Origin: a virus
Lineage: Duplodnaviria > Caudoviricetes
Length of the DNA stretch: 60,589 bases
IMG/VR virus record: IMGVR_UViG_3300014208_000008
Location: 1-60,589 of that record
Reading direction: 5' to 3' (one strand)
Shown here: positions 1-46,641 of the stretch, piece by piece
How the letters are laid out: the number at the start of each line of letters is the position of its first letter
Numbering within the stretch: position 1 is the first letter of the stretch
Translations under genes and position numbers: made by a program
The notes under the pieces: generated by a model
Told to the model about the DNA's origin: nothing
The model's input: the letters and a program-made list of their open reading frames with translations, nothing else
Databases searched by the model: none

Positions 1-123
1 AAAGAACAATTCCGTCAAAGTCTGAAGAAGATATGACAGAAGCAGAATTACGAGCGTCAATAGCTGCAAAGGTATGGGCGACGTAAAAAGATTTACCAAT
101 GGATATTTAAAAGCGCAGGGTAA
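1..123. repeat. Terminal direct repeat, left copy (circular assembly overlap)
   Basis: Bases 1-123 are identical to 60467-60589 and contain the 3' end of the scaffold gene. Confidence 0.95.
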
Positions 124-205
124 CTCCTCCGTAAGATGCCAAATGGCACTAATAAATAGAAATTAGAAATTAAAACATTTAATCTTAATTATTAGGAGCC
201 TTATC

Positions 206-18300: not shown

Positions 18301-21300
18301 GTAGTGCTTAATACTAAAGGCAATCCAGACAATATCAGCGTCAAGATGGTCAAAGATGCCGTTACAGCGCATGTCAATAAATCTAAACTGACAGGAAAGC
18401 AGGAACGTATTCTACGCGCACTTTCTGATACCGCAGAAAGTTTGGAAGAGGCCGGAAAGCGGGGTATTCCTGATGATTTTACACATGAACAAAAACTTGT
18501 AGCCATTGAAGTTGAAAAGAAAATAGAAGATGGTGAAATTGATGTTGAGCAACTTGACGGTTTAGCTTATGAATTATTAGGCGATACTGAGGAATTTACC
18601 GGACAGGAAGCCATTAACGCATTAGATGATTATTTTGGAGTAAGTAATGAACGCGAAACAACTACAAAAGGTGCTGGACTTCTTGAAGAAGAAGCACTCA
18701 GCAGCTACACAGAAGATGAGCTACAAAGAAAGGATGCAGAAGATAAGCGCAGAAAGAAAAGCGAACAAGAAGCAGAATTAAAGGCCAAGCAGAAAGCGAG
18801 TGCAGATAGAGAAATAGACACGCTTGCTGATGAAATGCTTGGAAATTTTGACAGTGGCGATGTGTTCGATGTCAGAAAAGAATCTGATCGCCCAATGGGT
18901 GAAACAGTTGGAATGACGCAAGGAAGCGTTATGTCTACATCTACAATAAAAAAAGGCGAAGAAGGAAATAAACTAACCAAAGAACAACGTAAACAAGTCT
19001 TAAAAACATTGGTTGATGTTTACAAGAGCAAAGGTGCTGACAAGGAAACCCGCATTAACTCAAATGGTGATGAATATACAGCATTCCCACATCAACCTGA
19101 ATTATTTGAGAAATCAGATATTACCGGCGCTATGGTTCGATTTTATGTCACTATGCCGGATGGCAAGATAGCGCACCCTACTGAATTATTCCCTGACGTT
19201 ACTCAATCAAAAATAGATGCAATTTTAGCCGAACAAAAACATGATGAAGAAATCGTTAAGAGTGAAGTCAAGCGCATTACAGACAAACAATTCGACTCTG
19301 TACGTGATGCAGGTATTTATTGGGATGAACAAAGTGATAAACAATTAGCGAAAGATGGCGGTAAGATACGCTCTATACCTTGGAGCCTAGAGCGTACCGC
19401 ATACGAAAAGGACGGTAAAATCATCATGCCTTATGATGGATTGCTCACTGGGAATCCTAAAATAGCAGATGAATTAAAGGCGCAAGGCTGGAATAAATAT
19501 AGCCATCAATCCGAACAACCCAAACCAGTAGACAAACAACCCGCCGCTACGGATAAGCAAAAGAGAGACGACACCTTAAAATTTAGCAAGGCAGTACCGG
19601 ATAATACATTAGCTATAGTTCATAATTTATCGCTGGATAATCTAATTCACGCTGACAAAATGGGAGGCATAGCTGCGCCTAGTTTAGCTGTTACTGATAA
19701 AAGCCATCCGTTAGAAGGATTTGGTGAAATAACTTTAATTGGCAATAAAGATACATTGGGGCCACAAGCAAGCGCAAAGAATCGTTATTTTAATGCTGAT
19801 GTTTATTCACCAAGATACCCTAATGTAAAGTATGTTATTAGTGAAAAGGATTTTCGTAATTTCATAGATTCGCTTTCAGATAATGCAAAAAAACTTAACG
19901 CTCAAGTCAATCGATTATCAAAAAGTGATATTGAAGATCGTGGATTAATAAAAGGACTAGAGTACGATCTTGTCATGCAGTATGAGTTTTTGCAGTCGCA
20001 AGGCAAAGCGCCAGCGTTTAAATACAAACCTAAAACAAAATTACCAACTGCTTTTAATAAGTTTATTGCTAAAGCATCTGATTTTTATTTTAGTCGTGAA
20101 GAAGATTTTAGGAAAGCGGCTGTTGAAGAATACAACAAAACACATATCGAATTTAACAAAAAGTTTGGTAATGATGAAATAACAGATATTAACAGTTCAG
20201 AAGCTTATAACATAGCTAGAAATGCCGGAGAATTGGTAAAGAAAGCCTATAAAGAAAAAACAGAAGGCAGTTCAATAGATACTTATGATCTTGATAAAAA
20301 AGTACGCAGCAAAATAAATAATCAAGCATATAAAAAATGGTTATCAGACAACTATTCAAATCTGATAAGTGATGAAAAAATATTCAACGGATATACCTAT
20401 TCTGGAACACGTAAATATTTGCCTCATAATCTCGATACAGTTGTTCGGCTTTTAACAAAAGAATTACGTGGAGGTGAAGGTTTTAACTATGGCGTTCCTT
20501 CTATACGTGCGCATGTTGCAAAGCAATTTAAAACCATTAAATCTATTCAGGATTCTAGGAACGATCTTGTCACTAAAGAACAAATGGAAAAACTCAAGGA
20601 AGAAGTAAACGCAGAGTTTGAATCCATAAGTGAAGAATTAAGCCAATATCGCAATGAAAATGCTGGATATAGTGATCAATCATCCGAAGCACTGGCCGGT
20701 TTAGCATCAAAAGGTTATCGTGAATTCAAAGAATATTACACGGATGTTCCAACAGAAACGATGCAAAAGGTTGTTGAGTTTTTAGATAAACTAAAACACA
20801 TGCCTTCAGAATACTTTGAAGCAAAAATAGGCCGTGCTGTTGGTATCAATGAGTTTGATGGCGCTTTAGTGCCAATAGGAAAAGAATATGATAGTGCTAT
20901 CGCTATTCTTAAAAAACACGGAATTACAGAAATAAAGCGATATAAAGCGAACGATAATGCAAGTAGAAGTGCAGCATTAAAATCGTTCACTGATTTATTA
21001 TTCAGCAAAGCCACAGCACAGCAACCCGGCATAACCATAGCCGAAGCTAAAGCCAAGCTACCCAAGAACGTCAAGCCCATGCTGACTAATGGTAAGCTTA
21101 AAGTGCTGCACAATATTGGTGAAGTGGCGCAGGACGTATTGAATCGTGGTGAGGTTTTATATCATGCTGCATGGCATGGTAGTCCGCACGAACACAATAA
21201 GTTTGATTCCAGCAAGATAGGCACAGGCGAAGGAGCGCAAGCGTTTGGTTATGGGCATTACTTCACGGATGCTAAGAGTATTGCTGAGTATTATAGGGAT

Positions 21301-24300
21301 CAGTTATCAAGTAAAATAGATTTAAAACTACAAGACGGAACAAATGTCTTAGATACTGCTAGAACTTACTATGGTAAGAATACAGCAAAAAAGATACTTA
21401 ATGTAAAGTCTATAGGAGAGAAAAATTCAGGATGGAAGTTATCAGATATTAAAAAGGAGATAGAAGGGTATAAGGATAGATTACTAGGTAAGCCGGATTT
21501 GGAACATGACGTAGGGTTGCTTTTAGATGCTATAGATAACGGCGAAGTAGAACTACAAAAAGGCAAACTCTACCTGGTAGAACTAGCCCCCACGCAAGAC
21601 GAATACCTTGACTGGGACAAGCCGCTGAGTGAACAGAGTGAGTTGGTTAAAGAAATTGTAGGAAACATAAATAATGATAATGGAATTGTATCTGTAAAAA
21701 TTAACGGTGAAAAAGTAATTTTAGCAGAATATAGCAGTAATGATGGTGCTGATTGGTTTATTAATCGCTTAGAAAAAGGTGATGAAGCTTTTGGCGAGGT
21801 TTTGTACAGAGCAATCTCAAAAACATGGAGTCCAAATGGCGTTGGCGGTCTCGGAGCGTCAATGGGAAAATGGGCAGAACAAAAAGCATCAGAGGAATTA
21901 CATTCACTAGGCATACGCGGCATACGCTACAAAGCCGAACAAGGAAAATCATCAGCCAACAACTATGTAATATTTTCCGACGAAGATATTTCAATTACTA
22001 ACAAATACAGCATTAACGCATGGCATGGCGGCGCGGATTTTAACCAATTCAACCTTGATTTTGTAGGTACAGGGCGAGGTACTTCACACTTCGGTTACGG
22101 CTTTAATTTCTCTGACTTGAAGGAACTGGCAAGGGATTACGTAGGCCGGTTAGGTAAACTCTACAATGTAGACATAGCGCCTAATAAATCAGACCTGCTT
22201 GATTTTGATAAGCCAGTATCGCTTCAAAGCGAGAAAGTACGCACTGTATTAGAGGCCAATGGACTTGCTACCGATAACAGAAACGGTAATCGCATTTACA
22301 AGGACTTGGTTGCTAAGTATGGCTCAGATAAAGAAGCGTCTACATATCTATTAAACTTAGGCATAAAAGGCACAATGCACAAGTTGCCTGGACAGACTGC
22401 TTACAACTATGTAGCTTTCTCTGATAAAGACGTATCAATCCTACAGAAGTTCGCTACTGGAACTATGGGTGCAGAAGGGCTATATGATTCTAAAACAGAT
22501 ACACTTTATTTGTTTGCCGATAACCTGAATAATAACAATTTCAATTCTGTACTATCTCATGAATTATTCCACAGAAGTTTAGCCACAGACAAAAAAACCA
22601 AATCCGCTTATGATAAGTTCTTAGGTGAGTTACAGGCGCGTTTTAACCTTGCAGCCAGAGGATTAGGTTCAAAGATTGAAAACGCAGCATACAAGCGTGT
22701 TATAAAAGCCAAAACTAAACTTGTTAACCAGCAAGAAGAATTTGCGGCTTACATAATATCAGAATGGCAACGCGCACCGAAAACACTTTCAGCAAAGATT
22801 ATAAAAGCCATTAAGAATTTTGTTGGCGCTATCCGTATGGCATTATTGAGAGCAGGTTTAGACTTCGGAACTATAGGTAAATTACACCCAAGTGATTTAT
22901 TGGCAATGGCTGGCTATGGCGCACAGAGTAATGTGAATATTGGAGCTTCATTTAACAGTGAGGCTACAGTAATGGCATCGGCAAAAGATCAGGGTTATGA
23001 AGGAAATAATAAAGGAGAGGCATTTGAATGGCTCAGGGCTAAGGCTAAGGGGTTGGATATGTCTCAAGAAGCAAGGATGGCTAGAGCTAAGATGATGGGG
23101 TTTGATGTAAATAAAAAATGGTTTCATGGAGGAGATTTTGATATTGATGAGTTTAATAACAATACGTATCGAGGCAATTTAGGTTCTGTATATTTAACAG
23201 ACAATGCCGAGGTTGTAGCTAGTTCTTATGCTCTATATGGTGCTGTTGAAACAAGATTTGGATTAAAAGTAACAGATCAAGAAGATATAATTGATCTTGG
23301 TAATGAAGCTCTTGATAAGTTTAACAGAAGCGCTACAGTTTATCCTTTATATGTTAAAGCAAACAATAAGCTAGATGTTGAGCGCATAAGTGGCTCAGAC
23401 ATCATTAAGACATTTGGTAAAGATGCTGTTTATGAAATAGTTAAATATGATTCAGCAATGAGTGAATATGGAGATCCAGATGAACTATCCGCTGATGATT
23501 TTTCAGAAAAAGAATTAGCCAATTTTATAGATGATGAATATATAGATGAAAACGTAAGGGATTTAATTGAATACGATGGCGCTTCGTTAGAAGAAGCATC
23601 AAGCGGATTTAGATTTTTAGTTGTAGCCGATAAATTAAATGAGTATATGGATGCTCATAAATATGATTCTGTTTTAATAAATGATGATCCAGAAAGCGGA
23701 GGTAATACATTAGTTATTAGACAACCCAACCAAATCCGATCAATCCATGCCGCCTTTGACCCAGACTTTGCCGATAGCGGAAATCTGTTAGCAAGCGCAC
23801 CAACAGAACGATTCTACTCAGCCCTGCACCGTGCGATACTTGGCGACAAGATACCCAAACGCGCGTTTGATTCCGCCAAGAGCTTACAGCAATGGCTGAA
23901 TAATACCGATAACGTAGGCAAGATCGGCGTGAAACCGGATGAGATTTTTTGGTCAGGCATTAATGACTTCCTGGACATCAAATCCGATGCCAAAGAGAAA
24001 GTCACCCGCGAAGAACTGGATGCGTTTATGCGCGAATCAGGTACGGTGCGAGTTGTTGATATTGTGTTGGATGATAAAAAATTACCTGATGATTTTTATA
24101 AAATACAACGTATAGCAGACGATAATTATTTTGTTAAAAATAAGCAAGGTAATATTTTTTCGTTTAGAACTGAAACAGAAGCTAATAGATGGATTGATGA
24201 ACAACTAATTAATAGAACAAAATACGCAAACAGCAACTACGTAGTCCCCGGCGGCAAGAACGCCAGAGAGATTGTGGTGACTATTCCCACGGTTGATGCC

Positions 24301-27300
24301 TACAACGCTTCTGATTCTACTCATTATGGCGACATTGGCACACTGGCAGGCAAGCCAGAATTAAACGGCAAACAGACAATGTGGATGCGCCTTGACGATA
24401 GAACCGACGCCGATGGTAATGAAGGGATATTCATGAACGAAGGGCAGTCACAACGCGCTCAACATGGGAAAACTAAGGGGTTTCAAAATAAGTATAAATT
24501 AGAAAATCTTGAAATTAGGAAGGAGTATTTTGACAAAGCAAACCCTAACAATTATGGTTATACGGTATTTGATAAGATGTCTAATAAATCAGTTTCTCAA
24601 TCTTTTTTTAATGAGAAGGATGCAGAGAGTCATTTATCGAGTATCGCTAATAAATACTTAGGGATAGGGCCTGCTCCCGCTCCTTTCATCACTGACAGAA
24701 ATAACAAAGCATCCACAACCTATATCACACTATTGCTCAAGAAAGCCGTTTCGCTTGCGATAGACGAAGGCAAGGGCTTTGTGGCGTGGACTACTGGAAG
24801 TCAGCAAGCTGGATTTTATGATTTAAGCAAGCAGATAAGACGTGTTGAATGGTTGCCACAAACAAACACCTTACGTGCATTTGATTTGAATGGTGCGTCA
24901 GTAATTGACCAAGTTACTGAAGAAAATAAAATTGAAGATTATGTAGGGAAAGAAGTTGCAAAAAAATTGCTTGAGTCTGCCCCTACAATAACAGGCGGCG
25001 GTAAAAAAATTCATAGTGTTGAAGGCGATGGTTTAAAAATAGAAGCTCCTTGGACACAAGCTATGTATGGTTCAGAAAACGGCCTAGACGCACAAGGAAA
25101 GCCATCACTATTCACCCAAGCTGCCAATGACATTGCCAAAAAATTTGGCGGCAAGGTGGGTAGTGTTGAGATTAATACCCGCGACAAGCAACCCATAGAT
25201 TCTAGCACATTAGAGATAACTGAAGAAAATGGTAAGTTTTACGTTACCGATAGCACAACTACAGATAAATTTTCAGATGAATTTAATACCTATGAGGAGG
25301 CCAAACATGCAATGTACAGCACATATGGACTGGGGAATTTAAAACAACCCGCCCTAATCATAACACCCTCTATGGCGGCCAAAATACGCGATGAAGGTTT
25401 CCCCCTTTTTAGTAAAACCAATATGAGCAACACCTCACAATGGTCTGGTGGCGATACCATTACCATTGACGGCAAGGAACGGCCAACACGGAATTCCAAC
25501 GGACAACTGATAGCGCAGACTGAGGAAGGGTTAATGAACTTCTGGAAGTGGTTTGATGATTCAATAGTTGTCGATGAAAAAGGAAGGCCATTGGTTGTTT
25601 ATCATGGAACAGATAAAGATTTCACTGAATTTGATTATGATAAACTTGGAGAGTCAACATTAGGCAATGCGTCCACAGATGGGTTAGCAGCCACATCATT
25701 ATTAGGATACTGGTTTAATAGTGAGCCTATGGTTGGTAAAAAACATTCTCCATACTCAAAAGATATGCCTGTTTATCTGAAAATAAGTGAGCCAATTAAT
25801 GAAGAAAAAGTTAGTTATATTGCTGATACGTTAGAGGGATATTTGCATGATGACTTAGAAGAACATTACGACAATGATTTATATAATTATTTAAAGGATG
25901 CAGTTGATTCATATAAAGAAAGTAATTGGGGTTCTGATGGAATAATAATAAAAAAAGATGAGGAATTTGGAGGTAAGAGTTTTATAGCCTTCGAATCTAA
26001 TCAAATTAAATCTATCGATAATATCGGTGACTTCAACCCCGACAACAACGACATCCGCTACAGCATAGCCAGTGAAGAAGAAAACCTACCTTATGAAACA
26101 GGAGTAGATAAATTCCAAAGGCAATTTCAAGACAAGATGATTCGCTTTAAAGTGATTCAGCAAGCCAAAGAAATAGAATCAGCTAAGGATGAAGGCTATA
26201 CAGGTAATGATATACACGAAGCCAGAGCTTACATGAAAGCGCATGGCATTGTTAATCCTATTCGTGATGATACCGACGTTTATCAAGCTGAATCATTACG
26301 TTCTGGTATAGCAACAGAGTTAATAAAGGATTTTGAAGAAACTGTTTTACAACCATTGGTTAAAGAAACTGTTGATTCTAAATTAAAAATGGATGATATT
26401 TCAGACTTCCTTAAAATGCAGCATGTTGAAGAAGCTAATGCCAGGATACGTAAGATTAAACCTAATCAAGACAATCCTACAGCATACGGCATTACAGATG
26501 AAGAAGCACAAGCATATCTTGATGAAGTAAAAGATAGAGACGACTACCAAGAACTTAAGCGTATTGCCGAAAAATGGCGTGGATTAACAGACGATATTCT
26601 TAATATGAAGGTATCTAACGGTATTATCCCACAAGAACAAGCTGATGCTTACCGAGCTACATTCAATCTTTATGTTCCAGTAAAAGGCGCAGAAGAAACG
26701 CCACAAGGAACAGGTAGAGGTTTATCTGTTTACAACAATAATAAACGTAGGTTAGGACATAGCTTACGTGAGGAGCGCATTGTTGAAAACATTATCAAGG
26801 ATTACGAATCAACTATTAACCTGATTGAAAAGAACAAGGTTGCCATAATTGCTGGTAACTTCATTAAAGAAATAGATGATAACTCAATAGGAACCATAGG
26901 TAAGCCAGTTCGTAGGCAGGTATTTATGCCTGGGGCAGTTCATTACATGGTTGAATATCATGGTTCTGATGTACAGGCTTTTGATAACTTACATGACGCA
27001 CAACAGTTTGTTAATGATGAATCTTTGAAAGTTGGAAGGAATAAGAGAGACTTTTATATTGACCATACTCATGATGATGGCCGTGTTATTCTTCAAGTAA
27101 AGCCTTTATTGGATGACCATGAATTTCAGTATTATGAAGATGGGAAAGCGATACGTGGACAATGGAATGATGAATTATTAGCAAGAGCATTTAAGAATCT
27201 AGGTATTGAACCTATTAATAAATTACTGGAAGGCGCAAGAGAATTTAATACCTTCCTATCTAAAGCTTATACCGGTTGGAGTCCTACATTCTTAATTAAG

Positions 27301-28947
27301 AACCCTATTAGAGATGCAATACAAGGCGCTATAACTTTGACAAGCAAATTAGGCATTAAAGAAACAGGTAAGATATTTGCCGCTTATCCTCATGCCATGA
27401 AAGAGCTTTATAATCACTTCAAGAATCATGGTTCATCAAATGAGGTTAATCTTTATCGTGGTAGTGGTGGCAGCACAGGAGCCGCTTATATTTCAGATAC
27501 GGATAGAATCGGTAATGACATTATGGATTCTTACAATGAATATGCCGGAGCTGTAGACACATATAATAGAACTTATGAACAAGCTATTGCTAATGGTGAC
27601 AGTGAAAATAAGGCCAAATTAAAAGCCGCAATGAAAGCAGGTAAAGCTGGATTCAGAGAAACTCCGGTATTAGGCCATTTCATTAACTTCATGGAGAAGG
27701 CAAATTCTATTACTGAAAATGCACTTAGACTGGCTACATTCAATACTTTGATAGCTGAAAGAGAAAATGGTAAACGAGTTTACACCAATGCTCAAGCAGC
27801 ATTAATGGCTAAAGACTTGATGAACTTTAACCGCAAAGGAGAGCTAACTACTCAGCTTGGCGCATTATATTTATTCTTTAATCCGAACGCACAAGGAACG
27901 CACGTCCTATTATCAGCATTAGGCAACTCGCAGTATAAAAATGAAGCACGTGTACTAACTGGAACCATTGTCCTAGCGGCATATTTAGCTGCAGAAGCAA
28001 TGAGAGGTGGTGATGATGAAGATAAATGGAAACGCATACCAGCTAATCTAAAAGACAGGAACCTTATTTTTGGTGTTGGCGATACTAAGTTCATGCTGCC
28101 TGTGCCTTATGGATATGGTATTTTCCATTCATTGGGTAATGCTATATCTGATGTGGCACATGGACAAAGTGGTTGGAAATCAGGAATAAGATTAGTTGCT
28201 TCAATGTTTGATAACTTTTCACCATTCGGCAATCCTATAGATAGTGAGCATGGAGCATTTCAACTATTGCCTACAATACCTAAAATGGCAATGGCTACCA
28301 GCGTAAATGAAAATAACTTTGGTTCACCAATCATGCCTGATAAATGGAACGCTTCTAAGCCTGATAGCCAGACAATGTGGCGTAATACTAAAGGCACAGT
28401 TTACGATGATGTAACTCAACTTATGAACAATCTAAGCGGTGGTAGCAAGTATAAAGCAGGGATTATTGATGTTAGCCCTGAATCACTAAGGTTCTGGGTA
28501 AGTTCATTGACTGGTGGCACTGGGCAGTTTGCATTAGATTCAATTAATCTTGGCGCAACCACGTTACAAGGAGCGACACCAGACTTAAAAGAAATACCGA
28601 TAGTTAAAGCCTTCACTCATGAAATAGGTGTACAAGATGCAAGACAGGCATTTTGGACAGCAGCAGATGAAGCCAAGACAGCAGCAGACGAGTTTTCAGC
28701 AGCCAAAAAAGCTGGTGATAGATACGCTATGATGGATATTAAAAAGAGTGATGGCACTTTAATAGCGTTGTCGAAGTTTGCAGTTAAACAGCAGAAGATG
28801 ATTAAAACCTTACGTGATGCTCAGGATTTGATTAGAACGAGTAATCTATCATTATCTGCAAAGAAGGCTAAACTTAAAGCTTTAGAGAGAAAAGAAATAG
28901 CAGTTTATGATAAATTTTTACACAGTTTTTATAAGGAAAATTACTAA
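15334..28947 (+). CDS. Large polyvalent virion or ejection protein: SLT-like lysozyme, four ART-like modules, HExxH metallopeptidase, LPD38-like C-terminus
   Basis: SLT-like 'MVEAGG..AVGPMQII' (~16660-17050). HG modules at ~21170 (WHGS), ~22020 (WHGG), ~23120 (FHGG) and ~25600 (YHGT). HELFH at 22558. C-terminal 'NFNRKG..LYLFFN..LPVPYG'. Confidence 0.8.
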   Translation: MAITLKQYKDSDPAFANIPIDEFFNYMHQEYYSHVPEEEFAKAVDYVPPKPVVPEKEDFVRGFKEPFKQLPQQGYGLLAGAGAAAENTFGEGGYSTGLKKYAVDKYIDETNKLALDSKESDSLTFSLDKAKQGDYGSLVDWVQHGLGYGTGQLVELLATRGIGSAAARLGTPLVAKELTEKMVASQVAKLAAEEATKNLGQAELRKMAVANVGARLAQIGGNAAMVGSSIGMEGSEIMGGLTQKEQETGKPLTGSDIAKGFAWSVASGLTDFVGDKFGLDVVTGKSPLFKLAGQATGVKGMVSRGLLTGAIAAPAEGGQEYVQTLMEEQGKGNDPFSAQSLRQAFDASGMGAIAGGGAGIIGGVLSKPVTPPQAVLNSGSVDEAISNAQATVASPSVTVPMPVTDIQETQDAAGNRSNAERNITVTSPSGLAETSNTGAIGYDEIFNQAAVNHAIPVEILKAFNMVEAGGRLTDNGKTIRPLDKNGNKLSNAVGPMQIIGHYFPQFDADKLANDPQYNVNAAAQILQGYYANTPEKLSDIQRWRLVARKYFGSTDMAKNTEYANKIIAAIGKDSGYKDVLYQGQTLEQPEVTLSETITTNEETNQETGQEGLLSSPANFDYLSSEGIPLKKIGNVFKDYLGDEVIPDGYEKKANQSEVAQAIDELIARNNEEKQAETQTQEAEIGSDLSSSITGRGLTGTNDGGISTIPDRLPESDKSTIEPNVSNTISGLDALADKEIKQPWEMRHNEWNKSNIRDLTNEEVSNLTDVFKSGTADLNYGKLGNKTVYQSTDESGNAIGQWQELSKTGRKLLSTNEHKEQVKQALANGLPVPANVLSDYPELQAQYAPTPTSKESLQVQSSNGQATPPIQEIVPSAVTKDLTKITKVHAKVNSKGQNKLVDSGTGYEVFPDKEFKNITAERLYFKAEKAKQVAAYIPEQTSVKPYHPAIQSLADDLTIGGGIAYIFDANDNIKDRTSSVNPYWYKDGAFVVLNTKGNPDNISVKMVKDAVTAHVNKSKLTGKQERILRALSDTAESLEEAGKRGIPDDFTHEQKLVAIEVEKKIEDGEIDVEQLDGLAYELLGDTEEFTGQEAINALDDYFGVSNERETTTKGAGLLEEEALSSYTEDELQRKDAEDKRRKKSEQEAELKAKQKASADREIDTLADEMLGNFDSGDVFDVRKESDRPMGETVGMTQGSVMSTSTIKKGEEGNKLTKEQRKQVLKTLVDVYKSKGADKETRINSNGDEYTAFPHQPELFEKSDITGAMVRFYVTMPDGKIAHPTELFPDVTQSKIDAILAEQKHDEEIVKSEVKRITDKQFDSVRDAGIYWDEQSDKQLAKDGGKIRSIPWSLERTAYEKDGKIIMPYDGLLTGNPKIADELKAQGWNKYSHQSEQPKPVDKQPAATDKQKRDDTLKFSKAVPDNTLAIVHNLSLDNLIHADKMGGIAAPSLAVTDKSHPLEGFGEITLIGNKDTLGPQASAKNRYFNADVYSPRYPNVKYVISEKDFRNFIDSLSDNAKKLNAQVNRLSKSDIEDRGLIKGLEYDLVMQYEFLQSQGKAPAFKYKPKTKLPTAFNKFIAKASDFYFSREEDFRKAAVEEYNKTHIEFNKKFGNDEITDINSSEAYNIARNAGELVKKAYKEKTEGSSIDTYDLDKKVRSKINNQAYKKWLSDNYSNLISDEKIFNGYTYSGTRKYLPHNLDTVVRLLTKELRGGEGFNYGVPSIRAHVAKQFKTIKSIQDSRNDLVTKEQMEKLKEEVNAEFESISEELSQYRNENAGYSDQSSEALAGLASKGYREFKEYYTDVPTETMQKVVEFLDKLKHMPSEYFEAKIGRAVGINEFDGALVPIGKEYDSAIAILKKHGITEIKRYKANDNASRSAALKSFTDLLFSKATAQQPGITIAEAKAKLPKNVKPMLTNGKLKVLHNIGEVAQDVLNRGEVLYHAAWHGSPHEHNKFDSSKIGTGEGAQAFGYGHYFTDAKSIAEYYRDQLSSKIDLKLQDGTNVLDTARTYYGKNTAKKILNVKSIGEKNSGWKLSDIKKEIEGYKDRLLGKPDLEHDVGLLLDAIDNGEVELQKGKLYLVELAPTQDEYLDWDKPLSEQSELVKEIVGNINNDNGIVSVKINGEKVILAEYSSNDGADWFINRLEKGDEAFGEVLYRAISKTWSPNGVGGLGASMGKWAEQKASEELHSLGIRGIRYKAEQGKSSANNYVIFSDEDISITNKYSINAWHGGADFNQFNLDFVGTGRGTSHFGYGFNFSDLKELARDYVGRLGKLYNVDIAPNKSDLLDFDKPVSLQSEKVRTVLEANGLATDNRNGNRIYKDLVAKYGSDKEASTYLLNLGIKGTMHKLPGQTAYNYVAFSDKDVSILQKFATGTMGAEGLYDSKTDTLYLFADNLNNNNFNSVLSHELFHRSLATDKKTKSAYDKFLGELQARFNLAARGLGSKIENAAYKRVIKAKTKLVNQQEEFAAYIISEWQRAPKTLSAKIIKAIKNFVGAIRMALLRAGLDFGTIGKLHPSDLLAMAGYGAQSNVNIGASFNSEATVMASAKDQGYEGNNKGEAFEWLRAKAKGLDMSQEARMARAKMMGFDVNKKWFHGGDFDIDEFNNNTYRGNLGSVYLTDNAEVVASSYALYGAVETRFGLKVTDQEDIIDLGNEALDKFNRSATVYPLYVKANNKLDVERISGSDIIKTFGKDAVYEIVKYDSAMSEYGDPDELSADDFSEKELANFIDDEYIDENVRDLIEYDGASLEEASSGFRFLVVADKLNEYMDAHKYDSVLINDDPESGGNTLVIRQPNQIRSIHAAFDPDFADSGNLLASAPTERFYSALHRAILGDKIPKRAFDSAKSLQQWLNNTDNVGKIGVKPDEIFWSGINDFLDIKSDAKEKVTREELDAFMRESGTVRVVDIVLDDKKLPDDFYKIQRIADDNYFVKNKQGNIFSFRTETEANRWIDEQLINRTKYANSNYVVPGGKNAREIVVTIPTVDAYNASDSTHYGDIGTLAGKPELNGKQTMWMRLDDRTDADGNEGIFMNEGQSQRAQHGKTKGFQNKYKLENLEIRKEYFDKANPNNYGYTVFDKMSNKSVSQSFFNEKDAESHLSSIANKYLGIGPAPAPFITDRNNKASTTYITLLLKKAVSLAIDEGKGFVAWTTGSQQAGFYDLSKQIRRVEWLPQTNTLRAFDLNGASVIDQVTEENKIEDYVGKEVAKKLLESAPTITGGGKKIHSVEGDGLKIEAPWTQAMYGSENGLDAQGKPSLFTQAANDIAKKFGGKVGSVEINTRDKQPIDSSTLEITEENGKFYVTDSTTTDKFSDEFNTYEEAKHAMYSTYGLGNLKQPALIITPSMAAKIRDEGFPLFSKTNMSNTSQWSGGDTITIDGKERPTRNSNGQLIAQTEEGLMNFWKWFDDSIVVDEKGRPLVVYHGTDKDFTEFDYDKLGESTLGNASTDGLAATSLLGYWFNSEPMVGKKHSPYSKDMPVYLKISEPINEEKVSYIADTLEGYLHDDLEEHYDNDLYNYLKDAVDSYKESNWGSDGIIIKKDEEFGGKSFIAFESNQIKSIDNIGDFNPDNNDIRYSIASEEENLPYETGVDKFQRQFQDKMIRFKVIQQAKEIESAKDEGYTGNDIHEARAYMKAHGIVNPIRDDTDVYQAESLRSGIATELIKDFEETVLQPLVKETVDSKLKMDDISDFLKMQHVEEANARIRKIKPNQDNPTAYGITDEEAQAYLDEVKDRDDYQELKRIAEKWRGLTDDILNMKVSNGIIPQEQADAYRATFNLYVPVKGAEETPQGTGRGLSVYNNNKRRLGHSLREERIVENIIKDYESTINLIEKNKVAIIAGNFIKEIDDNSIGTIGKPVRRQVFMPGAVHYMVEYHGSDVQAFDNLHDAQQFVNDESLKVGRNKRDFYIDHTHDDGRVILQVKPLLDDHEFQYYEDGKAIRGQWNDELLARAFKNLGIEPINKLLEGAREFNTFLSKAYTGWSPTFLIKNPIRDAIQGAITLTSKLGIKETGKIFAAYPHAMKELYNHFKNHGSSNEVNLYRGSGGSTGAAYISDTDRIGNDIMDSYNEYAGAVDTYNRTYEQAIANGDSENKAKLKAAMKAGKAGFRETPVLGHFINFMEKANSITENALRLATFNTLIAERENGKRVYTNAQAALMAKDLMNFNRKGELTTQLGALYLFFNPNAQGTHVLLSALGNSQYKNEARVLTGTIVLAAYLAAEAMRGGDDEDKWKRIPANLKDRNLIFGVGDTKFMLPVPYGYGIFHSLGNAISDVAHGQSGWKSGIRLVASMFDNFSPFGNPIDSEHGAFQLLPTIPKMAMATSVNENNFGSPIMPDKWNASKPDSQTMWRNTKGTVYDDVTQLMNNLSGGSKYKAGIIDVSPESLRFWVSSLTGGTGQFALDSINLGATTLQGATPDLKEIPIVKAFTHEIGVQDARQAFWTAADEAKTAADEFSAAKKAGDRYAMMDIKKSDGTLIALSKFAVKQQKMIKTLRDAQDLIRTSNLSLSAKKAKLKALERKEIAVYDKFLHSFYKENY

Positions 28948-34028: not shown

Positions 34029-34276
34029 GGTTTTATCATCACTTTAGCAGCAGTACCAATAGCCTGCCCTAACAGTTTACCGGCAGCTTCCATGCCTTCT
34101 GATTGGTTTTTATCAAGTCCTTTAATCTGTAGCTGAGTAGTTTTAGCATCCTTTTGGTATTGCAAGCCTTCAAGTGCTCGGTTAGTGCCAAAATCAATCC
34201 CGGTTGCCTTAACATTGCCATCAGTATAAGTGGCATAACTACAGCCGGTTAGTAGTAAGCATAATAGTAGTTTCAT
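34025..34276 (-). CDS. Small lipoprotein
   Basis: Lipobox LTGC in MKLLLCLLLTGC. Confidence 0.7.
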   Translation of the reverse strand: MKLLLCLLLTGCSYATYTDGNVKATGIDFGTNRALEGLQYQKDAKTTQLQIKGLDKNQSEGMEAAGKLLGQAIGTAAKVMIKP

Positions 34277-34425
34277 ATCAACTCGCCATGCTTTGCACGT
34301 ATATATGTTTTACCATTCGTTGAGTCCCAAACCATGTGGCCTTTCAAATTCGCTTTATCGATCTTATGTGTAATATTACGACGTTTCTGATATGCAATAA
34401 ATGATTCGTTTTCTTTTCTTTTCAT
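34273..34425 (-). CDS. Small basic hypothetical protein (50 aa)
   Basis: Manual translation MKRKENESFIAYQKRRN...; RBS AGGAG. Confidence 0.45.
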   Translation of the reverse strand: MKRKENESFIAYQKRRNITHKIDKANLKGHMVWDSTNGKTYIRAKHGELI

Positions 34426-34510
34426 CTCATACTCCTAGATTAAAACTTAAGCCGTGCGGTTATGATTGCACACAGAAGCAAAGCAACAACTATCATAATG
34501 ATTATAAGCT

Positions 34511-34783
34511 TCATGACATTCTGTTTAAATCATCAATAATAGCCTGAAATAGCGCGGCACGGCTTGAATTTGATGTGGCTATTACATCGTTCAATAAACT
34601 TATTTTCTCGCCTATGCGCTCAATTTTAAGCTGTTTTTGGCTATTAACAAATTCAGCTAATATTGATAATGCGTTGTTAGCAGTTTCAACAGTGACATCG
34701 ATTAATTTATCGTTGTTCTGTTCGCTCTGGATTATTTCATCAGCTATTCTATCAAATTCATAGCGTGGAAATTGATCATGCAT
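34511..34783 (-). CDS. Hypothetical protein
   Basis: ORF with an upstream GAGGAG. Confidence 0.5.
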   Translation of the reverse strand: MHDQFPRYEFDRIADEIIQSEQNNDKLIDVTVETANNALSILAEFVNSQKQLKIERIGEKISLLNDVIATSNSSRAALFQAIIDDLNRMS

Positions 34784-34943
34784 CTTTTATTCTCCTCTCA
34801 ACAAGTTCGGCTTTTGGATGATCCAGGTAATATGATTCTTCCTGTTCGCAACATTCTTTGTATGTATTGCCTTCGTATGTTTCTTTATGTGGCTTATGAT
34901 CAACAAGCCATGTATCTATTATTTTCATTTCATTCCTCCATTT

Positions 34944-35059
34944 AACAAAGATAATGATTGATAAATAAAGATTAGAGTATATTCGCTGCTCTTTCTTTAG
35001 ACTTATCGCGTGATCTCAATCATTATCTTTGTTGCGACTACTCTTACCCGGTAATCGCA
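34944..35059 (-). ncRNA. Stem-closed ncRNA candidate, unit 2
   Basis: Perfect 18-bp inverted repeat (34944-34961 / 35016-35033) plus an abutting hairpin at 35033-35059. Confidence 0.5.
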
Positions 35060-35121
35060 TTAGGTTTGATTCTTCCGGCTTTACCTAAAATAACGGCTGG
35101 TCACCAAAACCCCCTCGCCTT

Positions 35122-35171
35122 GCAAAATCGAATTTGCCCACCGTACTCATCAAATCAGGAATCGAACCTGA
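35122..35171 (-). other. Two isolated T-arm-like hairpins
   Basis: TCAGG-TTCGATT-CCTGA and GCAAA-TTCGAT-TTTGC on the minus strand. Confidence 0.45.
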
Positions 35172-35172
35172 C

Positions 35173-35326
35173 ACAAAGATAAGTTCTTAGAATCGAACTA
35201 AGAATTTATGTCATTCCTTACTTGAGATAGTCATCGTGGCCGTCGAAGTAGTTGCTCTTTCTATACTCGGCATAGTTTTACCATTAAACTAACTTATCTT
35301 TGTTGCGCCTGGATTACGCCAAGCGC
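35173..35326 (-). ncRNA. tRNA-like ncRNA with a 60-nt insert in place of the anticodon loop, unit 1
   Basis: Acceptor GATAAGT/ACTTATC, then TA, D-arm GTTT-AATGGTA-AAAC, TATG/CATA stem and T-arm CTTAG-TTCGATT-CTAAG. No CCA is encoded. Confidence 0.6.
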
Positions 35327-35332
35327 GGCGCT

Positions 35333-35548
35333 TTACTTGCAATACTTCCTGTATTCTTTGTCCAGCCGTTTAAACTCACGCCTATCAAATTTCTTTGCAT
35401 AGGCGCGTTCAGAGTTAATCTCATTACATGAATATTGACTGCCATCATGCCTATCGTATGCAGCATATACAGTAAAAGGCATCCATAATAAAAATATAAC
35501 CATAATTGTTATAATTAGTGAAGCGAAAAACATAAACCATTTAAACAT
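35333..35548 (-). CDS. Small membrane-anchored or exported protein
   Basis: Hydrophobic N-terminus. Confidence 0.5.
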   Translation of the reverse strand: MFKWFMFFASLIITIMVIFLLWMPFTVYAAYDRHDGSQYSCNEINSERAYAKKFDRREFKRLDKEYRKYCK

Positions 35549-35918
35549 AATAACCTTCCTTACCCTCTTTCATACGTAATAAATCACAACCGGCACGATA
35601 CCAGCCGCATATAATAACAAGCCTTGCAACAGTGTTATCCAATGTTGAATAATCTCTATCAAGTGGCTCAACAATAGTTTGATACGGTTTTATACTCTTA
35701 ATATCGTGTTCTTTAAACCACTTATCAACATCTTGTTTCCTGTAGTAGCTAACCTTGTTTACTTTTTGAATAACTTTTGGAAAGCTTTTATAGCGTGAAG
35801 CAGCATAAACTCTGTCCTTGTATTTAACGCCAAACATCTCAATAATCTGAACACGGCTTATTAATGATTTACTGCTTAAATCTTCTGCTTTTTGCGCTTG
35901 GTGTTTAAATTTACTCAT
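35541..35918 (-). CDS. AlpA/excisionase-like winged HTH protein
   Basis: 'LISRVQIIEMFG..FPK..YYRKQDVDKWF'. Confidence 0.5.
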   Translation of the reverse strand: MSKFKHQAQKAEDLSSKSLISRVQIIEMFGVKYKDRVYAASRYKSFPKVIQKVNKVSYYRKQDVDKWFKEHDIKSIKPYQTIVEPLDRDYSTLDNTVARLVIICGWYRAGCDLLRMKEGKEGYYV

Positions 35919-35930
35919 TTTTGCACTCCA

Positions 35931-36197
35931 TCACAAAGCTAGATTAGTTTTTCTAAGTTGATATTTTTTAAATCCAATCGCCTCAGCGCCGGCTTTAGTT
36001 GCAAAATAAAAAACCCTATCTTCTATTCTGTTCCCTGATTTAACCAAGCCGTTCTTTTCCATTTCTGATAGTTCAATATCATCAGGTGTCCCAAATGTTG
36101 CACAATAATGGTTTCTGAATCCCCATTGGTTTTTTTTGTATCTATCATCTGCACCAAGCATGTGCTGTAGTTTTTGTTTTTGACTGTCTGTTAGCAT
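35931..36197 (-). CDS. Hypothetical phage protein
   Basis: 'HMLG..GFRNHYC..EMEKNGLV..FYFATKAG'; likely start at 36197. Confidence 0.55.
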   Translation of the reverse strand: MLTDSQKQKLQHMLGADDRYKKNQWGFRNHYCATFGTPDDIELSEMEKNGLVKSGNRIEDRVFYFATKAGAEAIGFKKYQLRKTNLAL

Positions 36198-36317
36198 TTT
36201 ACAGCACCGATAAAATAATAATAACAAAAGCACCAGCCATACATGCCGCTAATATATAACTATGCTCACCATCTCTTTCTTCATGCCAGTGGTGATCATA
36301 TTCATCTATCGGGTGCT

Positions 36318-36929: not shown

Positions 36930-37325
36930 TTATTTATAGGTATTTCTGTAATACCGTAAAAGATCACTCAATTTTACATCATTGCCATACGGATTAGATG
37001 TACCACCAAAAACATTAAACAAATTATTATGTTTTATAAGAATTATTTTGTAGTATGGTTTATCGCTACATTGCCAATGCGGTATTGAAAATCCTGTATC
37101 TTTAGTTATTTTTAATAAGATAACTTTATCTTCTATGTTTAAGCATGAATCCCAAGTAGCACACCATTGATTAGCTCTAATTAAAGAATCAAGTAGATTA
37201 GCGCCATTTTTAAACATTTCATTTGCAGCAGCTACATTATTACAATCATCCTCGTAATCACTGCAACTCTTTTCATTAAAAAACTCAATGCCATCATTCG
37301 CTTGGTATTTAGTTATTATTTTCAT
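36930..37325 (-). CDS. Hypothetical protein
   Basis: 'YQANDG..F..EKSC..YE' is a typical phage N-terminal pattern. Confidence 0.55.
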   Translation of the reverse strand: MKIITKYQANDGIEFFNEKSCSDYEDDCNNVAAANEMFKNGANLLDSLIRANQWCATWDSCLNIEDKVILLKITKDTGFSIPHWQCSDKPYYKIILIKHNNLFNVFGGTSNPYGNDVKLSDLLRYYRNTYK

Positions 37326-37361
37326 TTCTCTCTCACTATTATTTCAGTAGATTATCTATGT

Positions 37362-37790
37362 TTATAACTTTGTAACTTTTCCATACTCATCTTGTACAAA
37401 TGTTTCCGTGAAGCCTTCATCATCTTGCGAAAAAACATGTTGTATAAATATTTTAGATGATTTTTCTCTAAGTGCCTTAGGTACATATTTAGCATAACTA
37501 TAGCTCATTGGATCAATCATAAAACGGCTACTACCGATTGATTTAATTAATCCAGCCTTTTGTAATGATTGTATATATTGAGAAGCTAGTGATAAAGGAT
37601 TGTTTGATTTTGCACCTATAGCTTTCAGAATATCGCGCTTAACCATTGGCGATAAATCAACATACATAATCTTAATGGTTTCATCAAATTCCATTCTTGA
37701 GAGCAAATGCGCTAAGAACAATGTTTTTTTGTTCGCTACAAATGCCAGTTTTGATAAATGTTCAAAATATGTCATAAATGGTTGTTTCAT
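37362..37790 (-). CDS. RepL-like winged-helix protein
   Basis: 'FLAHLL..M', 'SQYIQSLQKAGLIK' and 'RFMIDP'. Confidence 0.5.
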   Translation of the reverse strand: MKQPFMTYFEHLSKLAFVANKKTLFLAHLLSRMEFDETIKIMYVDLSPMVKRDILKAIGAKSNNPLSLASQYIQSLQKAGLIKSIGSSRFMIDPMSYSYAKYVPKALREKSSKIFIQHVFSQDDEGFTETFVQDEYGKVTKL

Positions 37791-38056
37791 TTTATTCGGC
37801 AGTTAGTATCGTTAATATGTTGCTAGTATAACATTACTTTATTACTACCGCTAGTAATTTAGTTACGATTAATTAATTATTATTTAGCTATTCTTTTACA
37901 CTCACTTCCGCTTTGCTACAGCTCAAACAAAGGTGTGTATTATTTTAAATTGCCAATTTATGCTATGTTATTGAATATAAAAATAATTTTCTTAGTGTTT
38001 ATTAGCATACTTCGTAGTAGAACAGTTAAACTTTCATGTAGCTATGCTTATCAATT

Positions 38057-38497
38057 CTAGTAAAAATATAAGCGGCATTTTTCACGCACTATACAACAAA
38101 ATACAGGTATCGACATTGCCATTGTTAGGCCAATATCATTAGATACGCCAAAATCAGGCCGTACGTAGTGCAGTGGAGCTATAACAGTCCAATCTCGTCT
38201 ATCAGCACGGTAAATCAATATCGGCTCTAATTGTGCCATTTCTGCCTGAAATACAGTTTGCTTCCACCATCCTTTAATATCACCAGGATCAGCCTGCCGG
38301 TAACGCTTACTTTCAATAGCCAATCGCCTAAAATTATCTGATACCGGGCCAACTTCATCAGGATGTACAATCAAATCATAGCCACCGCTTCTTGTTTGCT
38401 CAAGGTTACGAATGAGCTTTATGCCGGTGTAGTCAAATATTAGTTTAGCCACATCACGCTCAGCCGACGAACCTTTGTTTTTTGAATTAATCTTCAT
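38057..38497 (-). CDS. PD-(D/E)XK Holliday-junction-resolvase-like nuclease
   Basis: 'SKNKG..AER', 'GGYDL', 'IESKR' and 'WWKQ'. Confidence 0.75.
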   Translation of the reverse strand: MKINSKNKGSSAERDVAKLIFDYTGIKLIRNLEQTRSGGYDLIVHPDEVGPVSDNFRRLAIESKRYRQADPGDIKGWWKQTVFQAEMAQLEPILIYRADRRDWTVIAPLHYVRPDFGVSNDIGLTMAMSIPVFCCIVREKCRLYFY

Positions 38498-40759: not shown

Positions 40760-41779
40760 ATGAGTAATCAAGAAATAATCGAATATGAAAATGATGGCGT
40801 TATTATTCAGTTAAATATGGCAGGACAAGCGCTAGAAAGAGCAACAACTATAATAGATAACAAAATAGTGCTTGATGTTGCTCATGCTGCAAAAATATTC
40901 TGCATACGTCAAAAATTATCAAAAGAGCGCATTGCACAGGCAACCTACATTGAAGTAAGCGCATTAAAAAACATTGGCGAATTGCTAAAGAATACAGAGA
41001 GAGCGAAAGGTACAGCGGGCGGAGGTAATGCTAATGTTACCGGCGGTAACAAAGTGGAACCGCCGGTAAATGATGCACCAACATTAACAGAACTTGGCTT
41101 AACAAAAAAAGAATCAAGTATTGCTCAAACGATAGCTTCGCTTGATGATGAGTCACTGGAAACATTAAAAAGCGGTAACAAAACTGTTAATCAAGTTGTG
41201 AAGGAAAAGAAAACAGAGCAAAGGAATAGCGATATTGCAGAACAAAGGCAAGCAATAGCTGAAGGTAAAGCAATGCTTCCAAGTGGTGTTTTTGAGGTAA
41301 TCGTTATTGATCCGCCTTGGAATTATGGCAGAAAATACGATCCAGATTCTAGCCGGGTGGCTAATCCATATCCTGAAATGGCACAGAGTGAACTATTAAA
41401 ACTTGAAATTCCATTTGCTGATGATGCTGTATGTTTTTTATGGACAACACATAAGTTTATTTGGGATGCAAAAGAACTGCTAGATAAATGGAGATTTGAA
41501 TACAAAGCTAATTTGGTTTGGGATAAAGAAAGTATGGGTATAGGATCATGGTTGCGTATGCAGTGCGAATTCTGCTTAATTGGTATAAAAGGAAAGCCAA
41601 CATGGATAAATACAGAATACAGGGATATTATCCGAGAAAAGCGCAGGGAACACAGCAGGAAGCCAGAATCATTTTATAACTTTGTTGAAGCGGTAACAGT
41701 TGGCAGAAAATTAGATTATTTCTCAAGAGAACAAAGAGCAGGATGGGCAACATTTGGTAATGATGCAAGTAAGTTTTGA
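40760..41779 (+). CDS. MT-A70-family adenine methyltransferase with an N-terminal helical domain
   Basis: 'IDPPW', 'FLWTT' and 'REHSRKP'; RBS GGAG before ATG 40760. Confidence 0.9.
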   Translation: MSNQEIIEYENDGVIIQLNMAGQALERATTIIDNKIVLDVAHAAKIFCIRQKLSKERIAQATYIEVSALKNIGELLKNTERAKGTAGGGNANVTGGNKVEPPVNDAPTLTELGLTKKESSIAQTIASLDDESLETLKSGNKTVNQVVKEKKTEQRNSDIAEQRQAIAEGKAMLPSGVFEVIVIDPPWNYGRKYDPDSSRVANPYPEMAQSELLKLEIPFADDAVCFLWTTHKFIWDAKELLDKWRFEYKANLVWDKESMGIGSWLRMQCEFCLIGIKGKPTWINTEYRDIIREKRREHSRKPESFYNFVEAVTVGRKLDYFSREQRAGWATFGNDASKF

Positions 41780-46442: not shown

Positions 46443-46601
46443 ATGAAAGTAGAATTATCACATGATGAAATAGAAACAATATTCTTTCATTTAGACTGTG
46501 CGCTAGATGACATAGATTGTGAGATAGAAAAAGACGAAAGGATTGCACTAACAAAACTTTACATAAAATTTGAACAGTTAGCAAAAGAATCAGAAGAATG
46601 A
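46443..46601 (+). CDS. Hypothetical protein (paralog B, 52 aa); not in the ORF track
   Basis: MKVELSHDEIETIFFHLDCALDDIDCEIEKDERIALTKLYIKFEQLAKESEE. Confidence 0.65.
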   Translation: MKVELSHDEIETIFFHLDCALDDIDCEIEKDERIALTKLYIKFEQLAKESEE

Positions 46602-46641
46602 AAAAGCCATGACATTATTAAATTAGTGTCATGGCTTTTTT
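46601..46641. terminator. Bidirectional intrinsic terminator
   Basis: AAAAAGCCATGACA...TGTCATGGCTTTTTT. Confidence 0.85.

Follow-up and report, generated by a model that had tools for sequence, protein, structure and literature searches.

Partial and non-canonical transfer RNA (tRNA) genes form a known class in prokaryotes, as set out in one report (PMC9897764). Bacterial and phage Y RNAs (YrlA) are closed by a stem and carry a domain that mimics the D and T arms of tRNA, according to a second report (PMC4201824). For T4-type phages, two further papers describe PeSL cassettes, short conserved intergenic stem-loop motifs in variable regions that mediate modular insertion, deletion and replacement (PMC2839356), and RNAC and RNAD, small stable RNAs of uncharacterised role that come from the phage tRNA gene region (PMC3014915). 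Here we analyze a non-coding block on the minus strand of a phage genome, the complete IMG/VR virus record IMGVR_UViG_3300014208_000008 (60,589 bp with direct terminal repeats present), which is referred to as a whole as the window. The block holds two stem-closed units, one of which resembles a tRNA. We tentatively read it as a tRNA-derived non-coding cassette that would be co-transcribed with an early leftward operon and whose short frame would double as a recombination junction, a reading that we favor with considerable doubt.

An earlier inspection of the letters, made without database searches and called here the sequence-only reading, described two units with a shared minus-strand layout at a spacing of 271, and each of its elements was found at the coordinates it gave. 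In both units a GC-rich hairpin is followed by CGCAACAAAGATAA, a body and then TTATCTTTGT (Table 1). The 14-mer CGCAACAAAGATAA is present in exactly two copies, both on the minus strand; the direct repeat to which it belongs reaches 17 nt at 94% identity. An inverted-repeat search likewise recovered the two perfect closing stems of 13 and 18 bp. With gaps limited to 150 nt, five perfect inverted repeats reach 12 nt or more in the whole window; four of them are at least 13 nt long, and two of these four are the closing stems of the units. Markov-simulated windows (n = 30) contained a mean of 0.13 perfect inverted repeats of at least 13 nt per window. Other perfect 14-nt inverted repeats lie on the plus strand at 46601-46640 and 17192-17235, with gaps of 12 and 16 nt, and the first resembles a terminator-type hairpin of the rightward gene block. 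The closing stems contain no G·U pairs and are thus symmetric on both strands. Additionally, the 10-mer ACAAAGATAA occurs exactly four times in 60,589 bases, always in this region and twice in each orientation, so that alternative pairings are possible (two further inverted-repeat pairs).

By its sequence, unit 1 derives from a tRNA in which a long insert has taken the place of the anticodon loop. When introns were allowed at the default threshold, ARAGORN made a single call in the window, which covers the body of unit 1, and no call in 20 simulated windows. This agrees with the earlier view that only one of the bodies is tRNA-like. The program's own parse, which makes the unit a Glu-CUC tRNA, places a 41-nt intron unusually and leaves the anticodon stem weak and the variable region 13 nt long, was not trusted. 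Instead, the register was read manually from an alignment with an annotated Bacillus phage tRNA-Asp, which shares 22 of 23 bases with unit positions 13-35, from U8 through the 5' strand of the anticodon stem. Runs of ARAGORN at 60-80% thresholds gave extra overlapping tRNAs of low quality (e.g. Ile at 178-248 of the test stretch), and these were discarded. A search in the transfer-messenger RNA mode of ARAGORN, at a relaxed threshold, found no such gene.

In this register the conserved bases of the D and T loops and the elbow contacts are present (U8, A14, R15-Y48 as A15-U48, G18G19, A21, G53-C61 and T54-A58). Taken element by element, the top half of a class I tRNA and its elbow contacts therefore appear intact, with the decoding end gone. 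Pairing between leader and trailer adds 5-6 bp below the acceptor stem. Because the anticodon loop is replaced and no CCA is encoded after the 3' strand of the acceptor stem, unit 1 should be unable to decode. The T1 hairpin (35179-35209, minus strand) can lengthen to 12 bp (ATAAATTCTTAG / CTAAGAACTTAT, with one mismatch), which is as long as an acceptor-T minihelix; the lengthened fold and the 13-bp closing stem both need the bases CTTAT, for which they compete.

More tRNA material lies in the spacer between the units, whose predicted fold is ordinary (z -0.6 versus shuffles). The window contains two strict T-arm hairpins, both at this locus and 31 nt apart, compared with eight in 200 simulated windows. 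One of the two is the T2 hairpin directly after unit 1, and a degenerate hairpin, T3, follows T2 at 34 nt. Spacings of 31-34 nt exclude whole tRNAs, and so the T-arm hairpins are fragments.

Unit 2 has no tRNA features. The two units are paralogous stem-closed modules of the minus strand. Four repeat families (D6, D4, D1 and D2) are collinear between the two copies. MAFFT misaligned the units, and a global alignment was used instead; it scored 70.5, against 50.4 ± 6.6 for shuffles with a maximum of 68.5 in 200. Divergence is strong at most positions. Leader (14 nt) and trailer (10 nt) are nonetheless 100% identical, and the inner 7 bp of the unit 2 stem (UGAUUGA/UCAAUCA) have no counterpart in unit 1. 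With identical leader and trailer and a perfect stem extension amid so much divergence, this uneven conservation is the best argument that the sequence of the frame and its pairing are probably maintained.

Both GC-rich hairpins, which were predicted to carry GUAA in the loop, do so and fold. Between them, three of the eight stem pairs are changed on both sides (C-G to A-U, G-C to A-U and G-C to C-G), and 16 of 16 cells in the hairpin alignment are paired. The sequence-only reading had suggested selection on pairing from the closing stems; the stem extensions, which differ yet still pair, and the doubly changed hairpin pairs speak in its favor, and pairing in both places appears to have been kept through sequence change. 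The U·G pair is retained at the same place in both hairpins, where the plus strand would have a C·A mismatch. This pair can form, and the D-loop and T-loop motifs can be read, on the minus strand alone; the flanking genes have the same sense. A scan of the whole window for 8-bp stems with at least five G-C pairs found two, hairpin 1 and one within a gene, indicating that the GC hairpins are not the general terminator type of the phage. They are followed by AACAAAG and lack a U tract.

Table 1. Features of the non-coding block and their positions in the window. Unit numbers count from window 35304 as unit position 1.
Feature	Position	Strand	Basis or remark
Whole non-coding block	34926-35339 (414 nt)	-	gap between 71-aa open reading frame (35333-35548, -) and 50-aa open reading frame (34776-34928, -)
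GC hairpin 1: 8-bp stem, one U·G pair, loop CGUAAU	35305-35326	-	-12.7 kcal/mol; few bases past stop codon of 71-aa frame
5' frame copy 1, CGCAACAAAGATAA (leader and first acceptor bases)	35294-35307	-	exact-match count, repeat search
Unit 1 closing stem, 13 bp perfect, 3' arm includes TTATCTTTGT	35173-35185 / 35291-35303, 105 nt between	-	inverted-repeat search
Unit 1 body, tRNA-derived	35177-35298	-	ARAGORN with introns allowed and tRNA-Asp alignment
Acceptor stem GAUAAGU/ACUUAUC	unit 7-13 / 121-127	-	one further pair possible (14 / 120)
U8, A9	unit 14, 15	-	
D stem GUUU / AAAC	unit 16-19 / 27-30	-	D arm = window 35275-35289
D loop AAUGGUA	unit 20-26	-	A14, A15, G18, G19, A21
Anticodon stem AUGCC / GACAU, 5 pairs, one C·A mismatch	unit 32-36 / 93-97 = window 35269-35273 / 35208-35212	-	
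Insert of ~56 nt replacing 7-nt anticodon loop, holds AGAAAGAGCA	unit 37-92 = window 35213-35268	-	manual reading, tRNA-Asp alignment
Variable loop, 5 nt, ends in U48	unit 98-102	-	
T arm CUUAG-UUCGAUU-CUAAG, G53-C61	unit 103-119 = window 35186-35202	-	
T2, isolated canonical T-arm hairpin TCAGG-TTCGATT-CCTGA	35155-35171	-	directly after unit 1
T3, degenerate T-arm-like hairpin GCAAA / TTTGC, 6-nt loop TTCGAT	35122-35137	-	fails strict T-arm test
GC hairpin 2, paralogue of hairpin 1	35034-35058	-	-10.1 kcal/mol; GUAA in loop
5' frame copy 2, CGCAACAAAGATAA	35023-35036	-	exact-match count, repeat search
Unit 2: 18-bp closing stem, 54-nt body without tRNA features, AGAAAGAGCA at 34987-34996	34944-35033	-	fold z -4.66, 0/200 shuffles as stable
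Unit 2 closing stem, 18 bp perfect	34944-34961 / 35016-35033, 54 nt between	-	inverted-repeat search
Shine-Dalgarno GGAGG and ATG of 50-aa frame	34926-34938	-	starts 5 nt past unit 2 closing stem

The adjacent 125-aa protein has three metagenome homologues at 85-94% identity, showing that close relatives exist, reached as fragments only. A metagenome scan with an alignment of this protein gave 15 loci, 13 of them at 34% identity and two of them close, L120 and L121, neither of which extends far into the block. The DNA of L120 is 84-91% identical and collinear from 39235 to 35337. It diverges three bases short of the stop codon of the 71-aa open reading frame (ORF). Past this point it has an overlapping ORF, and its last 110 nt show neither hairpin nor frame.

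Contigs of relatives were placed at 80% likeness in four coded runs, X1-X4 (groundwater, freshwater and landfill metagenomes from four studies). In a contig of X1, from a variant that is ~85% identical, position 34925 is joined to 35340; 414 nt are skipped, 8 letters stand in their place and the two flanking genes abut. A contig joint from 34956 to 35173 fits a deletion between direct copies of TTATCTTTGT that left unit 1 alone, and another from 34955 to 35294 unites the outermost leader and trailer, with intervening letters possible. Two contigs of X3 match outward from 35294 and have at least 97 unlike letters inside, while a contig of X4 matches as far as 34954-34956 and continues with 214 unlike letters. 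In four separate contigs homology thus breaks at the edges of the 10-mer ACAAAGATAA, with the frame kept. Near-identical pieces of the units are present in all four runs, with 0 to 7 differences per piece. The alternative bodies are readable to 30 letters only, and one such 30-mer gave no match in IMG/VR. From these comparisons the block appears to be strain-specific, in that related phages lack it or differ there. The proposal that the bodies are interchangeable gains from contigs whose likeness stops at the 10-mer edges with the frame intact, but plain recombination between short repeats predicts the same pattern. Small ORFs nearby also vary. Contigs of three runs skip the 100-aa ORF at 35919-36205 (joints 35918 to 36201 and 35918 to 36206), contigs skip the 50-aa ORF at 34273-34425 (34272-34510; joints 34271 to 34510 and 34273 to 34511), and the ORFs of about 37316-38076 are missing from L120. 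Gene by gene, the block of small ORFs is a mosaic.

As far as sequence comparison goes, it is established how the block is laid out and on which strand, that its two units are paralogues, that unit 1 descends from a tRNA, that the presence of the block depends on the strain and that breakpoints fall at the frame.

Outside near-identical relatives the frame, for which the sequence-only reading had suggested a search of related phages, was not found. A scan of IMG/VR for the frame pattern with a gap of 45-75 nt returned 20 stretches, most of which look coding and five of which are one identical sequence; none of the 20 had the hairpin or the CGCA prefix, and unit-1-sized gaps (~111 nt) lay outside the scan. 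The 14-mer CGCAACAAAGATAA alone matched at least 117 IMG/VR stretches, once in each, which we judged to be chance level. With a gap of 0-30 nt, the frame gave four matches in 185,579 species genomes, all of them unrelated hairpins. Near kin of the phage are possibly absent from both collections. No relatives were found in IMG/VR via the 125-aa protein or a 90-aa neighbour protein, nor in the species genomes searched by protein, and the helicase gave one IMG/VR locus at 28% identity. Against known phages, megablast and blastn (1e-5) gave no match; at E up to 10, 14 known-phage records match over short stretches only. The closest helicase among deposited phages has 35.4% identity, indicating that the phage has no close deposited relative.

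Both bodies share the 10-mer AGAAAGAGCA (35253-35262 and 34987-34996, minus strand), as had been noticed, as part of a 13-mer in which 12 positions agree between them; a third exact copy is intragenic, at 40834 on the plus strand. The search for targets that was suggested for it came back empty. The phage contains no complementary site at up to one mismatch, and a role as an antisense seed against phage genes was rejected. Predicted exposure of the 10-mer is not raised either, with an unpaired probability of 0.49 versus 0.42 in unit 1 and 0.30 versus 0.33 in unit 2. The complement of AGAAAGAGCA, UGCUCUUU, equals the core of the boxA of bacterial ribosomal RNA antitermination, so under the improbable scaffold reading considered below the RNAs could pair with host transcripts that contain boxA. 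The plus strand at 34987-34999 and 35253-35265 reads TGCTCTTTCT, and its first 8 bases equal this boxA core, perhaps by coincidence.

The phage encodes structural proteins (major head protein, terminase, head-tail adaptor protein of portal type and tail proteins) and, in a single ORF of 4537 aa at 15334-28947 (plus strand), a giant polyvalent protein with PBECR5 (barnase/EndoU/colicin-like nuclease), ART-PolyVal (ADP-ribosyltransferase) and LPD38 domains. The leftward gene block runs on the minus strand from ~40015 down to 28948. An ERF-family annealing protein, an exonuclease and a PDDEXK nuclease come first, followed by many small orphan ORFs. No promoter-like or terminator-like site is listed inside 34930-35335, which fits co-transcription of the non-coding block with its neighbours. 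A promoter of Bacteroidota type was considered for TTATCTTTGT, which fits the consensus TAnnTTTG of such promoters, and was rejected since the motif is not enriched (75 found versus 77.9 expected) and genes in the region use ribosome-binding sites of GGAGG type. Minus-strand ORFs of 29 aa and 20 aa within the block have no ribosome-binding site, and a small-peptide reading was rejected. The fold of a 406-nt region beats 100 of 100 shuffles (z -3.24), driven mainly by the closing stems. Two weak repeat pairs connect the block with its flanks. By the pair 35078-35092 and 35330-35344 (80% identity), the spacer repeats the 3' end of the 71-aa ORF in degenerate form; by the pair 34924-34937 and 35205-35218 (86%), the insert of unit 1 repeats the stretch that holds the ribosome-binding site and start of the 50-aa ORF (AGGAATGA.AT.AA). 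These repeats of flanking-ORF sequence are hints that the block may have grown through local duplications.

As a working model, the early leftward operon would have received the block, in some strains only, as a non-coding insertion built of tRNA-gene material. A module of GC hairpin, leader CGCAACAAA, body and trailer would be present in it twice, as tandem copies that have diverged. The block would be read through within the early leftward transcript, where the GC hairpin upstream may shield the 3' end newly left on the preceding message. Unit 1 is predicted to fold into the L-shaped top half of a tRNA on a long stem, and such a tRNA mimic might serve as a processing or punctuation signal for nucleases that mature tRNAs, or as a decoy. 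Unit 2 would be a reduced paralogue that has kept the hairpin, leader, trailer and 13-mer and lost the tRNA arms; it could act as a structure in the 5' untranslated region of the 50-aa gene. On DNA, annealing-type recombination may use the identical 10-17-mers as the sites at which it swaps or deletes bodies.

Several results weigh against this model. Default ARAGORN reports no tRNA gene in the window, and the Rfam tRNA model gives no match at E up to 10 (seven candidates were scored and none reported). The cloverleaf is not the predicted optimum, at -16.6 to -20.3 kcal/mol versus a minimum free energy of -27.8; because tRNA folds lean on tertiary contacts, we count this as neutral or slightly unfavorable. 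Shuffles fold as stably as the interior of unit 1 (z +0.9), and pairing between leader and trailer is expected to hinder RNase P. The covariation control, drawn from two sequences only, is weak, with 68 of 500 shuffles matching the observed value, and the perfection of the closing stems could reflect only their youth. The joints come from short de Bruijn contigs with sides of 30-35 letters, placed at 80% likeness, possibly from other organisms or repeats, and two of them may have further letters between their sides. Finally, the frame shows no conservation beyond near-identical relatives, so that purifying selection is not measurable.

Nearly as likely as the co-transcribed cassette, though somewhat improbable in its own right, is an inert relic with no RNA function. 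The block would then be a decaying phage tRNA array with an insertion in one anticodon loop, two leftover 3' fragments and one copy eroded further, and the 10-17-mers would be remnants of tandem duplication and microhomologies for ERF-type recombination. Decay agrees with a block that is absent or different in close relatives, with T-arm fragments standing too close (31-34 nt) for whole tRNAs, and with a unit 1 that lacks an anticodon loop and is no stabler inside than shuffles; a 10-mer AGAAAGAGCA that is not preferentially unpaired and a phage that encodes both an annealing protein of the ERF family and an exonuclease point the same way. It accounts poorly for tertiary-contact nucleotides of the tRNA elbow that are nearly all intact, for the perfect 18-bp stem of unit 2 with an inner 7 bp non-homologous to unit 1, for compensatory change in 3/8 hairpin pairs, and for a frame identical over 14 + 10 nt beside a hairpin and bodies that diverged strongly. 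The sequence-only reading had raised the possibility of an undescribed small-RNA cassette system; the tRNA-like body and the tRNA fragments point to an origin in tRNA genes rather than to a system built for the purpose. We consider it improbable that the frame is an expression or processing scaffold of the phage lineage, a non-coding counterpart of gene cassettes with small-RNA bodies swapped by recombination and AGAAAGAGCA as effector.

Two explanations act on DNA. The units could be miniature inverted-repeat elements, with termini that begin AACAAAGATAA and bodies that are different family members, and the terminal inverted repeats are indeed perfect (13 and 18 nt), share their outer 10-11 nt and enclose different interiors, in stems that are free of G·U and symmetric on both strands; likeness in relatives also ends at the inner repeat edges. 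However, neither unit is flanked by a direct repeat that would mark a target-site duplication, the 10-mer ACAAAGATAA is confined to this locus with no dispersed copies elsewhere in the genome, the frame has no family in IMG/VR (0/20 with prefix) or the species genomes, no integrase or resolvase was found, and the duplication also took in the upstream hairpin, an asymmetric part that lies outside the terminal inverted repeat. Mobility of this kind is a poor candidate, ahead only slightly of the small-RNA scaffold. We give far less credence to protein-binding DNA sites, in which the four 10-mers would be half-operators, for example for the adjacent 125-aa helix-turn-helix protein, and the RNA-like features would be incidental. 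Four exact 10-mers confined to 360 bp in inverted pairs would suit such sites, as would the helix-turn-helix-like gene ~200 bp upstream (weak PHROG E-values of 1e-4 to 9e-3) and the joint from 34955 to 35294, which would unite two half-sites if nothing lies between. Half-sites 54 and 105 bp apart are ill-suited to a dimeric operator, though, no promoter-like site is listed in the block, and the tRNA arms, the hairpin covariation and the unit-specific stem extensions are left unexplained.

The anatomy of the block is clean and unusual, and it is confined to one lineage; a narrow literature search found no prior description of a tRNA top half with a ~56-nt arm in a repeated hairpin-leader/trailer frame. 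If expressed, unit 1 would be a natural phage RNA on a tRNA scaffold, a top half with a foreign 56-nt arm in place of the anticodon, and it could engage enzymes that recognise tRNAs, or defences that target them, without decoding. The same phage carries the 4537-aa polyvalent protein with its RNase-type domain. The locus is also a compact case in which conserved frames of 10-17 nt coincide with non-coding differences between related phages. If it is a decayed array only, its significance is smaller and lies in the erosion of phage tRNA genes; default tRNA finders miss such remnants, and permissive ones report them as intron-bearing tRNAs.

Among described systems, several are set apart by the genes or matches that accompany them. 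A retron, with its msr-msd, would bring a reverse transcriptase (PF00078), and integron attC sites or an invertible segment would bring a tyrosine (PF00589) or serine (PF00239) recombinase; each search of the window gave 0 matches. In Rfam nothing matched at the gathering score, and the four matches at E up to 10 were unrelated families. The Y RNAs resemble unit 1 in being closed by a stem, about 80-130 nt long, and in having one domain that imitates the D and T arms of tRNA. Unlike a Y RNA, whose stem stands in the anticodon position, unit 1 has a closing stem that continues the acceptor stem, and the genome has neither a Y RNA match in Rfam nor a Ro60/TROVE gene (PF05731; 0 matches in the complete virus record, with the control positive in 2/14 genomes). 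The proposed exchange at the frame would resemble the work of PeSL motifs, and joints and loose ends fall at 34954-34956, 35173 and 35294, in short contigs placed at 80% likeness. In contrast to this block, which has no listed promoter and hairpins without a U tract, PeSLs have a strong sigma-70-like promoter and a terminator, and they flank protein genes rather than tRNA-like bodies. T4 RNAC and RNAD are similar in description, as small RNAs of a tRNA region, and any structural resemblance is putative. In the tRNA operons of E. coli, rtT consists of repeated fragments with tRNA 3' portions downstream of tRNA genes, and the repeated tRNA-3' fragments recall this block, although Rfam, which holds rtT, gave no match here. 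Compared with phage tRNA genes, unit 1 has ~56 nt for an anticodon loop, with no canonical loop at either end of the insert, and this length is too short for a group I intron; it also has a paired leader and trailer, no encoded CCA and a repeated hairpin frame. Like phage tRNA genes and their fragments, it is AT-rich and has a D arm, a T arm, an acceptor stem, a variable loop and the bases of the tertiary contacts, and tRNA 3' fragments adjoin it.

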